A DNA stretch of 4,989 nt from a virus (Duplodnaviria; Heunggongvirae; Uroviricota; Caudoviricetes): positions 1 through 4,989 of the IMG/VR virus record IMGVR_UViG_2698536458_000008; one strand, written 5' to 3'. A program made the position numbers and the translations under genes. Shown one piece after another: positions 1 through 4,989 of the stretch (position 1 is its first letter; each line of letters opens with the position of its first letter). The notes beneath the pieces were generated by a model. That model was not told where the DNA came from. It saw only the letters and a program-made list of their open reading frames with translations, and searched no databases.

Positions 1-103
1 ATCAATAACTTAAACTGGTGGTGATGGTGACATAAAAATCAAAAAATACGCCTTTTTCCGCGAACCGCCCGCCCCGTGGACAGGCCACCCCCACCAGGAG
101 TAC

Positions 104-131
104 CTACAAAAAAGCCGGATTGCTCCGGCTT
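104..131 (-). terminator. Rho-independent terminator ending the minus-strand operon after the SSB-like gene
   Basis: On the minus strand: 8-bp stem AAGCCGGA / UCCGGCUU with loop GCAA, followed by a U-run (UUUUGU); it lies about 15 bp past the SSB-like stop codon (146-148). Confidence 0.6.
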
Positions 132-145
132 CTGTCACTCGTTGC

Positions 146-568
146 TTAAAACGGTATGTTATCCCCGTACGGATCATCATTCCCCGCCTGTTGTTTGGCC
201 CTGTTCAGTGCATCAGTGGCCTGCCCCTGTTGGCCTTTTTTACCGCCCGGTCGCGCCGTTCTGGCACTGATTACACTGTCTGCGATAACCTGCCAGCCCT
301 GCCGCGTTTCTCCGTTCTGGCCTGTCCACTGGCTTACCTGCATGTTACCCGCCACGCTCACCAGCTCGCCTTTCTGGTGCTTTGCCAGTGCGTCAGCCTG
401 TCTGCCAAACGCCAGGACGGATAACCATATCGTCGCCGTTCCGTCATCTGCCTGGCTGCACGGCAGGGGAACCGCCATACTCGCCATCGTCATTTGCGTA
501 CCCTTGCTGGTGGTCTTTAACTGCGGGTCAGCCACCAGCCGCCCGTAAGCCGCTATCTGTGCTGTCAT
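146..568 (-). CDS. ssb: Single-stranded DNA-binding protein (SSB family), 140 aa, accessory copy carried by the element
   Basis: OB-fold core collinear with E. coli SSB (IWLSVLAFGRQADALAKHQKGELVSVAGNMQVSQWTGQNGETRQGWQVIADSVI versus the [40 protein letters not shown] region), Gly/Gln-rich linker and a C-terminal tip ...DDPYGDNIPF resembling the canonical DDDIPF tail. GGAGAG Shine-Dalgarno 8 nt upstream; the ATG overlaps the upstream stop as ATGA (565-568). Confidence 0.85.
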   Translation of the reverse strand: MTAQIAAYGRLVADPQLKTTSKGTQMTMASMAVPLPCSQADDGTATIWLSVLAFGRQADALAKHQKGELVSVAGNMQVSQWTGQNGETRQGWQVIADSVISARTARPGGKKGQQGQATDALNRAKQQAGNDDPYGDNIPF

Positions 569-810
569 GCTGTCTGCTCTCCGGTTTTAACGTTGATGGT
601 TGTCACCTGTTCCGCTTCGGCAATCTCCCGTTCTGTCAGCGTGGCAAAGTTTGCCGCCGTCGTGGTCATGAATGCGCTTATCAGTTCGGGATGTGCTTTC
701 GCGTATCCTTCCCCGGCGTTGCGGTCGATGATTTTTATCGCCACCCTCAGCCAGTGTTCTGTCAAATCAAGGGCGTGAGATTGTGGTTTTTTGGCGTGCT
801 TCGTTGTCAC
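565..810 (-). CDS. Hypothetical protein, 81 aa, translationally coupled to the SSB-like gene
   Basis: ORF in the six-frame track beginning MTTKHAKKPQ; GTG start at 810-808 preceded by GAGG with a 7-nt spacer; stop overlaps the SSB start (ATGA). No family recognised by eye. Confidence 0.55.
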   Translation of the reverse strand: MTTKHAKKPQSHALDLTEHWLRVAIKIIDRNAGEGYAKAHPELISAFMTTTAANFATLTEREIAEAEQVTTINVKTGEQTA

Positions 811-854
811 AGGCTTTACCTCACAGCAATAAAATAAAATTTTTGCATTTTAAC

Positions 855-1084
855 CCTTCACCTGTTCACCTTTTGCAATTTTCCCTTTTTATTCATGATG
901 TTAATGGGTTAACAGTTTCACAAAAACTATTCACCAACTGTTCACCACTGTTCACCCTTAAAGCTCAATAAAGAATCAAAAAGGTGAACAGTGAATAGTT
1001 TGGTGAACAGTTCATAAATAACTGTTCACCCTATAATATACTGATATAAAAGACATTTATTGCAGGGTGAACAGTGGTGAACAG
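855..1084. repeat. Iteron-type replication origin (P4 ori-like): TGTTCACC octamers in both orientations around an AT-rich core
   Basis: Direct TGTTCACC at 863-870, 939-946, 949-956, 1023-1030, with degenerate copies at 855-862 (CCTTCACC) and 928-935 (TATTCACC). Inverted GGTGAACA at 983-990, 1003-1010, 1066-1073, 1076-1083, with a degenerate copy at 991-998. Tandem copies are phased at 10 bp (939/949 and 1066/1076). A perfect 9-bp inverted pair GGTGAACAG(1003-1011) / CTGTTCACC(1022-1030) flanks an AT-rich spacer, followed by the AT-rich stretch 1031-1062. TGTTCACC is the type I iteron bound by the P4 alpha protein at ori and crr. The array sits immediately 3' of the primase-helicase gene. Confidence 0.75.
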
Positions 1085-1113
1085 TTATTCCATAAGTTTA
1101 ATTTTTTCCATCG

Positions 1114-2916
1114 TCATTTGTGACCTATTGCACATGATGGCATCCAGTCTTCTGAATCCTCTGTCAGGGTCACATTTGAACGCAAACCGTGCTTCGTTTT
1201 CCGTTTCATATACTCCCTGCCATATTCCGCCATTGCCCCCGGCATATCTTTACCGAAGCGCGTCAGTGTTACAGGTTTACCGAATCCGTGTGCCCTCATA
1301 TATGCCAGATAGGCGTGATAAAGATACCTGCGCGGACTGAACGGAATAATTTCGGCATTACCCACTAACAGACCATCACACATTACCGACGACATGAGAT
1401 AGCCGCAGAAGTCCACCAGCGAATCGCCCTCGCGTTTTATCACCAGAGCTTCTTCTGATTTCTGCTGCTCATACAGCAGGCGTTTAGCTTCGTCCTGGTC
1501 AGAAAAACGAGTAAGCAGGTGGCGAATCACAACCGCCAGCTCTCCTTCTATTTTTTCTGCCAGCATGGGGTCGCGTTCGTTCTCCGGTACAACTTCCGAA
1601 AAATTGAATATCACCCGACGACGTGAGATCCCCCCGCTGCGGTCACTGAATGACATGGCGTTATTGTTAACCGCCAGCACTACTGCCGGAATACGCGTTG
1701 AGTAGGGGGCTTTGTGTTTCGGGTCAATTGCCACCTTGTCACCGCCTGTAATGGCCTTAATCCCTGCCCCATCACCAGCGTAGCGGGTCATATCCGGCAT
1801 GATAATCAGCGAAAAGCCAACCACTAACGCGCGTTCCCTTGCATCTTCCAGCGCCTTCATGCTTGCCGATACTGTGTTGGCCTTACCCGCCAGCATGGTG
1901 CAAATCTCCGCCATCACGCTTTTACCACTTCCCCCTGGACCTGTTACCTCAATGAATAACTGCCAGTCGTACCGGTTCGCCAGCACCATGAATAATACAG
2001 CCAGTACGCGATCCGCCTTGCGGTCATTCTCAGCCACCGAACGGCGTAACCACTTCCAGAAATTCGGCGCATGTGTTGCCAGCGTTTCCCCCTCTGCTGG
2101 TGGGCTGAAAGGTAATTCACTGGCAATTAACAACCAGTCGTTTTTGTTATGCTCCCGAAAATTACCTGTTCTGGTATCAAATACCCCGTTACTGAATCCA
2201 ATCAGGTTACGGGCTGTATTCCCCATTACAGGCAAACTTAACTTCATGGTATCGACCGCCGATTTAATGGCGTTCTGCGAATAGCTGATCTCCGCATCAA
2301 TGAAAATCTGTGCCATAGCTCGCTGTAATTCTTTATCCTGTACTGGCTCCCATACAACGCCGTTGTAATGGTGAACAGTGTCAGAGTCAGCATGAATCGC
2401 CAGTTCACCGCCATAATGTGCCAGGAGAACTTCGCCGCGTTGACTTGCTCCCATCTGGTTAAGCGCCAGTGATGAAGCGTTATCGTCTTTTACCCGCTCT
2501 TTTTTCTTTACAGGCAGTTCAACTACCTTTTTCTTTTCCGCCTGCTCTGCCCGTTCACGTTCCAGATATTCGCGCCAGTTCTCCCGTTTCTGGCTGTGCA
2601 TTCCTTCAGGGTAATAATCAGCATCCCTGACACCTGCCGCTGCCAGTTTCTGCCCGATGGTATTAACAAGCCCCGGACGCAATAACCCCGCCTGGTAGAG
2701 ACGCACCCGATAGCGTCCGTCCGGTACGATTTGCAGCTTATCCAGTTCGGCAAGTTGTTGTTCTCCAAGCCAGACAGGAGGCACGCTGTCGCCAGCCAGT
2801 CGCCCGTCCTGTTCCTGCCACTGCTTCGCATGTGCCCACGCATCATTACCCGCAAAAATGATGACTTCCGTCATTTTGTCACGCGGCTGGTGTTTTAAAT
2901 TTGGCGCTTTTTTCAT
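1114..2916 (-). CDS. Replication initiator: P4-family primase / D5-like SF3 helicase, 600 aa
   Basis: Walker A FIEVTGPGGSGKSV, Walker B-like LIIMPDMTRYAGD, SF3 motif C-like VVLAVNNNA, and a D5_N-like region upstream (VLLAHYGGELAIHADSD...HYNGVVWEP). Preferred start is the ATG at 2916 (MKKAPNLKHQ...), with GGAGAGAG 5 nt upstream and an ATGA overlap with the upstream gene; the ORF track extends 5 codons further to a GTG at 2931. The cognate iteron array lies directly downstream. Confidence 0.9.
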   Translation of the reverse strand: MKKAPNLKHQPRDKMTEVIIFAGNDAWAHAKQWQEQDGRLAGDSVPPVWLGEQQLAELDKLQIVPDGRYRVRLYQAGLLRPGLVNTIGQKLAAAGVRDADYYPEGMHSQKRENWREYLERERAEQAEKKKVVELPVKKKERVKDDNASSLALNQMGASQRGEVLLAHYGGELAIHADSDTVHHYNGVVWEPVQDKELQRAMAQIFIDAEISYSQNAIKSAVDTMKLSLPVMGNTARNLIGFSNGVFDTRTGNFREHNKNDWLLIASELPFSPPAEGETLATHAPNFWKWLRRSVAENDRKADRVLAVLFMVLANRYDWQLFIEVTGPGGSGKSVMAEICTMLAGKANTVSASMKALEDARERALVVGFSLIIMPDMTRYAGDGAGIKAITGGDKVAIDPKHKAPYSTRIPAVVLAVNNNAMSFSDRSGGISRRRVIFNFSEVVPENERDPMLAEKIEGELAVVIRHLLTRFSDQDEAKRLLYEQQKSEEALVIKREGDSLVDFCGYLMSSVMCDGLLVGNAEIIPFSPRRYLYHAYLAYMRAHGFGKPVTLTRFGKDMPGAMAEYGREYMKRKTKHGLRSNVTLTEDSEDWMPSCAIGHK

Positions 2917-3267
2917 TTCTGCTCTCTCCACGCGGCAATCATGTTTTTCAGTTCCTGTAGTTTTTTATCAACATCCATACATGACACATGGTTATTTCTG
3001 GAAAGCGGGATTTCCCGCCTGAATCTGCTAATAAAGATCTCCACGTTCAGCGAACTATGAAATGAATAGCCATCACGAATAAAATACACACGGTCAAACA
3101 TCAGTTCTTTTACCGTTACTCTGTTACCGTTCNNNNNNNNNNNNNNNNNNNNNNNNNNNNNNNNNNNNNNNNNNNNNNNNACCGTTCTTATCCAGATAAA
3201 TAGCGCCGGGGATAATTTTGGGGTGTGCATAACCGCTGGCAGTCAAGCCAGATAAATACGTTCTCAT
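2913..3267 (-). CDS. Hypothetical small protein immediately upstream of the primase gene, interrupted by a 48-N run (3133-3180)
   Basis: C-terminal part after the gap (NGNRVTVKELMFDRVYFIRDGYSF...AAWREQK) is in the ORF-track frame and its stop overlaps the primase ATG (ATGA at 2913-2916). Before the gap, the frame from the ATG at 3267 reads MRTYLSGLTASGYAHPKIIPGAIYLDKNG; the 7-mer accgttc flanks the N-run on both sides (3126-3132 and 3181-3187), and removing the gap plus one copy joins the two frames into one continuous protein (...YLDKNGNRVTVKELMFD...). Alternative start in the ORF-track frame at 3230. Product unknown. Confidence 0.45.
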
Positions 3268-3273
3268 GATTAT

Positions 3274-3594
3274 TTATCTCAGATTTGAATCAGTATTCGC
3301 TTTCTCTATGGCATTTAATGCATCTGTGGCATTTTCAATGGTGCACCGTAACGAAATATCAAACTGCCCAAGCATTGCCAGTAACAAGCCAATATTACCC
3401 ATGTCAATGCGCATAGCCTTTTCGTCATATTCCTCATTTTCTGACGCATGCCACATCAGGCTACCAATTGACGCAACAGCCATTGATATATTGTCAGTAG
3501 CCCCATCCGCAGCGGAATAAACCTTTTTAGCAATATCATGCTCACAGTTAAAATGCGGATTAATCAGGTACTGGTAATTGGTCATGTCAGGCAT
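3274..3594 (-). CDS. Hypothetical acidic protein, 106 aa
   Basis: ORF with a perfect AGGAGG Shine-Dalgarno 6 nt upstream of the ATG at 3594 (MPDMTNYQYLINPHF...); the ORF-track start at 3636 is 14 codons further upstream and lacks an RBS. TAA stop at 3274-3276. Start overlaps the preceding gene's stop by 8 bp. No family recognised by eye. Confidence 0.6.
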   Translation of the reverse strand: MPDMTNYQYLINPHFNCEHDIAKKVYSAADGATDNISMAVASIGSLMWHASENEEYDEKAMRIDMGNIGLLLAMLGQFDISLRCTIENATDALNAIEKANTDSNLR

Positions 3595-3784
3595 GGCACA
3601 CCTCCTGACGAATACGGGCGGCGAATACAGCAACACAACCTGACGGGCAACGGTTACGCGCTTCGCGTTCCGTCCAGGCGGTTACGTGGATGATTTGAGA
3701 TTCTCCGGCACTCAGGGCCAGAAAACGCCACACAAAGGCCGTTTGTGTGTGTACAAGGTGTGGTATATGATTTACGGCAACCAT
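3587..3784 (-). CDS. Small protein, 65 aa, possibly Icd-like (host cell-division inhibitor family); first gene of the leftward early operon
   Basis: ATG at 3784 preceded by GAGGAG with a 5-nt spacer (the ORF track extends 33 codons further upstream into a hairpin region without an RBS). Sequence MVAVNHIPHLVHTQTAFVWRFLALSAGESQ...TEREARNRC...VFAARI resembles, from memory, the Icd-like proteins annotated next to alpA in P4-like islands; that assignment is unverified. Confidence 0.5.
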   Translation of the reverse strand: MVAVNHIPHLVHTQTAFVWRFLALSAGESQIIHVTAWTEREARNRCPSGCVAVFAARIRQEVCHA

Positions 3785-3813
3785 AACGGCTCCTCGTTTA
3801 CGTTGTTGGTTAG

Positions 3814-3850
3814 AAGCCCTGCGAGTGGTAACGACACTTGCGGGGCTTCG
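3814..3850. other. Long stem-loop (15-bp stem, 7-nt loop) in the regulatory region between the divergent early operon and the RHH gene
   Basis: GAAGCCCTGCGAGTG (3814-3828), loop GTAACGA, CACTTGCGGGGCTTC (3836-3850). As plus-strand RNA all 15 positions pair (13 Watson-Crick plus 2 G-U); as minus-strand RNA 13 of 15 pair. It lies in the 5' leader of the 3784->3587 gene. Confidence 0.4.
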
Positions 3851-3885
3851 TCGTTTCAATTGCTGAATTGCATGTATCAGCACTT

Positions 3886-3957
3886 GTGGTATTCACATTA
3901 CATTTAGGTGAATACCATTTCAAGTCTTTTTTGGTATTCACTTTTGTATTACACTGC
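3886..3957. promoter_or_regulatory. Operator-like repeats (GGTATTCAC) in the promoter region upstream of the RHH gene
   Basis: GGTATTCAC at 3888-3896, its inverted copy GTGAATACC at 3908-3916 (11-bp spacer) and a second direct copy at 3933-3941, plus a degenerate GTATTACAC at 3947-3955, all within about 100 bp of the RHH start codon in an AT-rich region. Confidence 0.45.
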
Positions 3958-3984
3958 ATCCCGTTATTAATGGGAGGTGCAAAC

Positions 3985-4290
3985 ATGTCCAGGAGTTCTG
4001 TTAACAATAAGTCACAGCAACTGAATGCCAGATTTCCACATGAAGTAGTGAGTGGCATTGAGGCATCCCTACAGCCAGGGGAAACTAAAGCGAATTTTAT
4101 AGTTACGGCTGTACGCGGTGAGATCGCCAGGCGCCAGGCAGAAGGAAGTGGAGAAAATCCCCTTGTGTCTTCACTGGATGCCCTAGCTAATGTCGAACAA
4201 ATCGGCATCAAGGCAGCGGAGGAAATCGGGCAGCTTATCACCGTTGCACGCGAAGAACTCCAGCGCCGCAAGGCCAAAGAATCAGAATAA
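3985..4290 (+). CDS. Ribbon-helix-helix (Arc/MetJ/CopG-like) DNA-binding protein, 101 aa; candidate repressor of the element
   Basis: GGGAGGTG Shine-Dalgarno 5 nt before the ATG at 3985. N-terminus KSQQLNARFPHEVVSGIEASLQPGETKANFIVTAVRGEIARRQ fits the RHH beta-strand/helix/helix pattern (compare Arc QFNLRWPREVLD). C-terminal ~50 aa is helical and charged. Opposite orientation to all flanking genes. The ORF-track version starting at 3838 is an unsupported N-terminal extension. Confidence 0.7.
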   Translation: MSRSSVNNKSQQLNARFPHEVVSGIEASLQPGETKANFIVTAVRGEIARRQAEGSGENPLVSSLDALANVEQIGIKAAEEIGQLITVAREELQRRKAKESE

Positions 4291-4347
4291 TCACTATCAG
4301 CGCCGTGGTGTGAGGAACTCCGGCGCATTGCTTTACAGGCGCACACA

Positions 4348-4524
4348 ATGACCAACGAAGAATCAACCAAAAAAACATCACCTGCACGAAAAAGACGACG
4401 CAGAAAGAAAGAGCATGAATCAGAACGATTCGCGCCGTGTTCTTTTGCCCTTGAGAAGTACCTTAAAGAATACTCATCAAAGGAGAGAGCTTCGCAGTTA
4501 TGGCAACGCACTGAAACAGACTGA
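4348..4524 (+). CDS. Putative small basic protein, 58 aa, downstream of the RHH gene (uncertain)
   Basis: My own translation of ATG 4348 to TGA 4522-4524: MTNEESTKKTSPARKRRRRKKEHESERFAPCSFALEKYLKEYSSKERASQLWQRTETD. Same strand as the RHH gene and upstream of the plus-strand terminator, but no convincing RBS; below the ORF-track length cutoff. Confidence 0.25.
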   Translation: MTNEESTKKTSPARKRRRRKKEHESERFAPCSFALEKYLKEYSSKERASQLWQRTETD

Positions 4525-4588
4525 TAGCATTGCCCACCAGCCTGATAGCGGCTATCATTGACATGCTTATGTTTAGTGTTTCCAAACT

Positions 4589-4618
4589 GGCGACCGCCCC
4601 AGGTCGCCTTTGTTTTAT
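4589..4618 (+). terminator. Rho-independent terminator for the plus-strand RHH transcript (possibly weakly bidirectional)
   Basis: GGCGACC (4589-4595), loop GCCCCA, GGTCGCC (4602-4608), followed by TTTGTTTTAT. On the minus strand the same hairpin is followed by a poorer U-tract and lies just downstream of the AlpA-like stop. Confidence 0.65.
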
Positions 4619-4635
4619 GTGTCATATGCTCCCCT

Positions 4636-4845
4636 TTACACTGCCTTACCTGAATTAATGCGATCCCGGCTTTTAACCCATTCCATAACCTCGGACAGCA
4701 GCCACCCTACAGAACGACCGCCCAGATTAAGACGTGACGGAAAGCGCCCTTTTTTCTCCAGTTCGTAACGTGTAGTGCGGCACACTCCAGTTAACTTACG
4801 ACATTCATCCTCACGGATTACGCGATCTTCATTTATTTCACGCAT
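4636..4845 (-). CDS. alpA: AlpA/Vis-family phage transcriptional regulator (excisionase-like HTH), 69 aa
   Basis: MREINEDRVIREDECRKLTGVCRTTRYELEKKGRFPSRLNLGGRSVGWLLSEVMEWVKSR contains the AlpA-type motif (compare E. coli AlpA ...LGVKSVGWIEAEIDEWL). ATG at 4845 gives the family-typical ~70 aa; the ORF-track start (GTG at 4932) adds 29 residues of doubtful coding quality. Confidence 0.8.
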   Translation of the reverse strand: MREINEDRVIREDECRKLTGVCRTTRYELEKKGRFPSRLNLGGRSVGWLLSEVMEWVKSRDRINSGKAV

Positions 4846-4989
4846 ACAAAAACCTACATAAAAATTACGTATATAAACTTTTCTCTTAGCTGTAGATATA
4901 TGAGATCGGATATTACTTAGATTCTTTTTCACCTCTTAAATTAAAAACACAACCATGCTGGTAATGACTCCAACTTATTGATAGTGTTT

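Follow-up and report, generated by a model that had tools for sequence, protein, structure and literature searches.

The run of Ns that interrupts the 4,989-nt stretch of viral DNA analyzed here (IMG/VR record IMGVR_UViG_2698536458_000008; hereafter the window) is in all likelihood a scaffolding artefact, in which filler Ns were placed between contig ends that share 7 bases, and the 48 Ns most likely match no real sequence. The run occupies positions 3133-3180 and is the sole non-ACGT stretch in the whole window. The initial annotation had pointed out that the 7-mer ACCGTTC abuts the N-run on both sides, at 3126-3132 and at 3181-3187; this was borne out, and no other copy of the 7-mer is present on either strand of the window. 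Comparison of the two window flanks with each other yielded a suffix/prefix overlap of 7 nt and of no other length. Given the window's own base composition, two fixed positions would match over 7 nt by chance with a probability of 6.6e-5, and in the repaired window the same 7-mer was met again at an offset of +55 at none of 4867 positions. The local sequence at the junction is not of low complexity, with a GC content of 0.36-0.52. The junction can be broken down as follows:

3126..3132: ACCGTTC, putative left contig end, the same 7 genomic bases as 3181-3187
3133..3180, no strand: putative scaffold-gap filler of 48 N; in near-identical ungapped assemblies the flanks adjoin with nothing between them, which corresponds to a true gap of -7
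3181..3187: ACCGTTC, putative right contig start and redundant second copy, the same 7 bases as 3126-3132

The source would be a draft assembly, very probably of an isolate of the Shigella sonnei lineage, in which two contigs stopped within the DUF4222 gene of a PICI/P4-type phage satellite. With only 7 bases in common, their ends would not have been merged by the assembler or scaffolder. The contigs may then have been set side by side on the basis of read-pair links, and the scaffolder would have written an estimated gap of 48 N in place of the real distance of -7. Together with the second ACCGTTC, the 48 N would amount to 55 spurious bases, causing a +1 frame shift that splits the 99-aa gene into two apparent ORFs. 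Negative-gap artefacts, or unmerged contig overlaps, in short-read scaffolds present as a non-round N-run between ends that repeat a few bases, as is the case here. The flanks of ungapped relatives overlap and the frameshift vanishes on merging in such artefacts; the same was observed for the present junction, which has nothing unusual in this respect.

Taken literally, the segment 2913..3267 comprises 355 nt (355 mod 3 = 1), and the mechanical ORF list contains two fragment ORFs (2913..3230 and 3124..3267) that occupy different frames, in line with the earlier statement that the literal Ns split the gene across two frames. For the repair, positions 3133-3187 were removed (48 N and one 7-mer, 55 bases in total), resulting in a window of 4934 nt. 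After repair, the minus-strand ORF 2913..3267 has 300 nt, encodes 99 aa plus stop and reads MRTYLSGLTASGYAHPKIIPGAIYLDKNGNRVTVKELMFD...AAWREQK. The initial annotation had predicted that deletion of the Ns and one copy of the 7-mer would give a continuous protein of about 100 aa, from the ATG at 3267 to the ATGA overlap with the primase, and this is what was obtained. The frame is broken because of the extra 7 nt. The repaired junction with a single ACCGTTC is CTCTGTTACCGTTCTTATCC, and the full repaired 99-aa protein is MRTYLSGLTASGYAHPKIIPGAIYLDKNGNRVTVKELMFDRVYFIRDGYSFHSSLNVEIFISRFRREIPLSRNNHVSCMDVDKKLQELKNMIAAWREQK. The three reading frames concerned are:

2913..3230, minus strand: predicted artefactual ORF of 105 aa with 17 X, in which the true C-terminal frame continues across the Ns and acquires an N-terminus from the wrong frame, MHTPKLSPALFIWIRT
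3124..3267, minus strand: predicted artefactual ORF of 47 aa with 16 X, consisting of the true N-terminal 29 residues, then X's
2913..3267, minus strand: DUF4222-family gene with a true length of 300 nt / 99 aa and 55 spurious bases inside, assigned by PF13973, phrog_285, an exact public protein and the annotation of relatives

Judged by sequence comparison, the 105-aa and 47-aa ORFs are artefacts. The stop codon TGA of the repaired ORF (2913-2915) overlaps the ATG of the primase (2914-2916) as ATGA (2913-2916), and gene calls on identical DNA in the S. sonnei chromosome CP022672.1 have the same 4-nt overlap (3705-4004 vs 4001-5803 in locus coordinates).

Alignment to ungapped close relatives, the check that had been proposed for the junction, revealed flanks that overlap by exactly the 7-mer with nothing between them. 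In the complete genome of E. coli G1/2, a query of 1001 nt that includes the gap covers just 946 nt; the 55 nt missing equal 48+7. Three complete E. coli genomes of about 97% identity, aligned base by base, showed one ACCGTTC and no insert between the flanks; their annotation gives the gene as 'DUF4222 domain-containing protein' (98-99 aa), with a 4-nt overlap with a 'DNA primase family protein'. The repaired 300-nt junction query matched 474 complete E. coli genomes, with at least 80% of the query in one place in 471 of them. The query aligned as a single piece in every listed match, and strain 10153 was 100% identical. When the whole window was compared with complete E. coli genomes, no full-length relative above 96.3% was found.

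Near-identical relatives were found via the exact 600-aa primase protein and include CP022672.1 (locus L004), AKNE01000020.1 (L005), CP046286.1 (L006) and the further assemblies L007 and L008; an IMG/VR locus (L034) is near-identical as well. CP022672.1 and CP046286.1 are complete Shigella sonnei chromosomes, the former belonging to strain 866 (PMC6128377). The left flank (window 1-3132) is identical at 3131 of 3132 positions in L004, L005, L006, L007 and L008, and the right flank (3181-4989) at 1809 of 1809 positions in L004-L007 and at 1775 of 1775 in L008, where the contig ends. The last base of the left flank maps to L004:3785 and the first base of the right flank to L004:3791, an overlap of exactly 7 nt that is seen in the six independent assemblies and supports the original proposal of an unmerged contig overlap instead of a true 48-bp gap. 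The repaired window matches L004, L005, L006 and L007 at 4933 of 4934 positions, L008 at 4899 of 4900 and L034 at 4789 of 4790; in each of these six assemblies the sole mismatch is at position 23 or 862, distant from the junction. The window has G at 23 and C at 862, while A is found at 23 in L004, L005 and L034, and T at 862 in L006, L007 and L008. Since each relative differs at either 23 or 862, the source represents a third haplotype of the same element, which matches no retrieved assembly. From the relatives, we infer that the source isolate has the same sequence across the gap.

Scans with a 34-mer of the left flank added 60 IMG/VR loci and 49 metagenome contigs, giving 117 related loci altogether from complete genomes, drafts, IMG/VR and metagenomes. 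One ACCGTTC, followed directly by TTATCC or TTGTCC, is present in 117/117 loci, and the left-flank 34-mer and a right-flank 25-mer are each single-copy in all of them. An N-run or a duplication at the site was seen in none of the 117 related loci, and no copy of the left-flank 34-mer with Ns was detected in the collections scanned (genome_contigs, 0 matches; viral_contigs, 60; metagenome_contigs, 49). In the phage collection, nothing beyond a 78% primase match was found. Because the 34-mer and the 25-mer are single-copy and the 34-mer lies directly before TTATCC or TTGTCC, a 55-bp tandem duplication is excluded in these 117 loci in any register that is compatible with the flanks.

The right end of the window carries a further feature that bears on the source assembly:

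4960..4989, no strand: IS1 terminal 30 nt (GGTAATGACTCCAACTTATTGATAGTGTTT), from which relatives continue into a complete IS1

In the near-identical S. sonnei relatives, a complete IS1 of 768 bp (L004:1245-2012) with InsA/DDE_Tnp_IS1 genes is situated between alpA and the integrase. De Bruijn contigs stop k-1 bases into a multicopy repeat. The IS1 stub suggests that the window represents an entire contig or scaffold from short reads that stops at a multicopy repeat, and from its length we infer k=31 (k-1 = 30) for the source assembly. A test for a diverged second copy of the element as the cause of the contig break considered allele differences placed symmetrically around the gap (3133-k / 3180+k): among about 42 allele patterns only L117 (k=64) was symmetric, which is within chance, and no symmetric pattern occurred at the k=31 suggested by the IS1 stub.

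The flanks would arithmetically also fit an arrangement A-U-U-B with |U| = 55, in which the 48 Ns stand for real bases and a private 55-bp tandem duplication frameshifts the DUF4222 gene; the flanks accommodate any register from the 7-mer to a point 48 nt to its left. Such a duplication would itself break the assembly via a loop in the de Bruijn graph, short tandem duplications are a known cause of contig breaks, and S. sonnei is rich in pseudogenes. However, a duplication in any register was found in none of the 117 related loci, including the six one-mismatch assemblies, and microhomology at 55-nt spacing amounts to at most 2 nt in any compatible register. A tandem duplication would additionally need a read-pair gap estimate that is exact to the base, and it would be a rare private event where a common artefact suffices. 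We therefore regard it as very unlikely that the Ns hide a 55-bp tandem duplication private to this strain, or a different short insertion, with a frameshift of DUF4222 as the consequence. If it were true, the satellite of the source isolate would have acquired a recent inactivating mutation in its replication module, 5' of the translationally coupled primase. Some stretches of one sequence collection are masked as N runs, and the Ns might in principle be a one-for-one mask that a data pipeline placed over normal sequence. Since a one-for-one mask keeps the spacing, it would predict a distance of 48 nt between the flanks in relatives, whereas the observed arrangement is a 7-nt overlap. As the flanks overlap by 7 nt in relatives, the mask reading collapses into that of a 55-bp insertion, and we give it next to no credence.

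The two copies of ACCGTTC could alternatively be a 7-bp target-site duplication around an IS or another repeat that the assembler did not traverse, with the Ns in place of the element. Direct repeats around unresolved sequence are a signature of transposition, IS1 abuts the satellite element, the near-identical relatives are S. sonnei, and S. sonnei is IS-rich. The present case shares with known IS target-site duplications the short direct repeat around unresolved sequence in an IS-rich lineage. It differs from them in that there is no IS terminus at the Ns and native sequence reaches the N-run on both sides; an IS junction inside the window would be expected to resemble the window's right end, where 30 nt of IS1 are retained. 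Moreover, the gap estimate of 48 nt is far too small for an IS (IS1 has 768 bp), IS1 usually gives duplications of 8-9 bp and other common Shigella IS elements of 3-5 bp, and none of the relatives (117 loci) has an insertion at the site. An IS insertion at this position is in our opinion highly improbable.

With the N-run read as filler between overlapping contig ends, the repaired protein matched the Pfam family PF13973 (DUF4222) with 61.1 bits at a cut-off of 27. Its residues 16-67 align to positions 1-52 of the profile (of 53) with no indel, crossing the join at residues 28-30, and phrog_285 matches residues 14-97 in one piece, likewise across the join. The exact 99-aa sequence is already public as 'DUF4222 domain-containing protein [Shigella sonnei]' and is found on at least 1000 contigs. 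A sequence search of the PDB with the repaired protein returned nothing at E<=1, and the five papers that mention DUF4222 do so once apiece. The repaired gene is like those for the DUF4222 (PF13973 / phrog_285) proteins of PICI-/P4-type satellites of E. coli and Shigella, which are located 5' of the primase; it has the same int-alpA-...-DUF4222-primase-SSB order and the 4-nt ATGA overlap, and no difference to the satellite genes is left after the repair.

For the annotation of the window, a single intact DUF4222 gene of 99 aa should take the place of the two fragment ORFs, and this gene should not be counted among pseudogenes, frameshift sites or novel split genes. The warning that coordinates to the right of the gap may be offset proved justified: all window coordinates beyond 3132 exceed the true ones by 55, which has to be subtracted. 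The finding has bookkeeping value only, as it concerns an ordinary assembly artefact and no new biology.

Judged by its neighbors, the DUF4222 gene lies in the replication module of a PICI/cfPICI/P4-like phage satellite. The order of genes is integrase and IS1 (just outside the window, in relatives), AlpA, a 271-aa ORF, an Icd-like protein, a 106-aa protein, DUF4222, primase, an 81-aa protein and SSB. Besides the DUF4222 gene and the 271-aa ORF, the window contains:

4636-4845: AlpA (PF05930)
3587-3784: Icd-like 65-aa protein
3274..3594, minus strand: 106-aa hypothetical protein immediately upstream of the DUF4222 gene (phrog_15327; coordinates inflated by 55)
1114..2916, minus strand: primase/replicase (D5_N + DUF5906 + Pox_D5) of 600 aa, immediately downstream of the DUF4222 gene, assigned by Pfam and the gene calls of relatives
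565-810: 81-aa protein
146-568: SSB

The primase is probably translationally coupled to the DUF4222 gene. Its start is placed at an upstream GTG (2931, 605 aa) in the mechanical ORF list, in contrast to the ATG (600 aa) in five assemblies. Integrase, AlpA (PF05930) and the D5_N/Pox_D5 primase are found in conserved order, with the integrase just beyond the window in near-identical loci, and integrase-AlpA-primase is the left part common to PICI and cfPICI in the SatelliteFinder description (PMC10085698). Components specific for cfPICI are the capsid, protease, portal, head-tail adaptor/connector and terL (PMC10085698). Among these, we looked at protease and capsid, and a ClpP/SDH protease and a Phage_capsid_4 gene follow the SSB gene in L005 and L007. 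The loci of S. sonnei 866 (L004) and L006 have no gene calls for protease or capsid 3' of SSB (7434-9265, beyond the left end of the window), although the length of the locus is the same as in L005 and L007. The missing calls may mean that the capsid module has undergone pseudogenisation or that the genes were called differently. A scan of the window against Rfam gave no family at gathering score.

Several further observations concern the surroundings of the gap and the neighboring genes. Two copies of the 8-mer TTACCGTT, at 3111-3118 and 3124-3131 with a spacing of 13 nt, lie close to the left side of the gap, and the second of them is overlapped by the 7-mer. As a local direct repeat (3111-3131), the pair is too short to trouble an assembler but could confuse the manual joining of contig ends. 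On the minus strand at 3810-4625, the 271-aa protein is called in L004, L005 and L008, whereas in L006 an antisense 150-aa ORF (3838-4290, plus strand) and a 58-aa ORF are called on identical DNA. Neither the 271-aa nor the 150-aa product had a match in Pfam, and the 271-aa product, the only one of the two scanned against PHROG, had none there. In the corresponding place of L002 and L003, which are 97% relatives, RefSeq lists a short protein encoded by the opposite strand ('YlcI/YnfO family protein').

The 90%-identity cluster that includes the 99-aa DUF4222 protein has as its representative a 707-aa DUF927 protein in which, by eye, no DUF4222 sequence is present. The cluster mixes DUF4222 proteins and replicases, and the clustering looks chained or erroneous. 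We considered whether the 707-aa 'DUF927' representative is a fusion of DUF4222 and replicase and rejected this idea, because inspection by eye revealed no DUF4222 part and only the N-terminal 140 aa of the primase are common. Residues 1-140 of the primase (2497-2916, minus strand), for which Pfam gave no match, share 95% identity with the N-terminal part of the 707-713-aa 'DUF927' replicases that other E. coli elements encode; beyond this part, the proteins are unrelated. The N-terminal module of the primase, encoded directly downstream of the DUF4222 gene, appears to have been swapped between two different replicase bodies.
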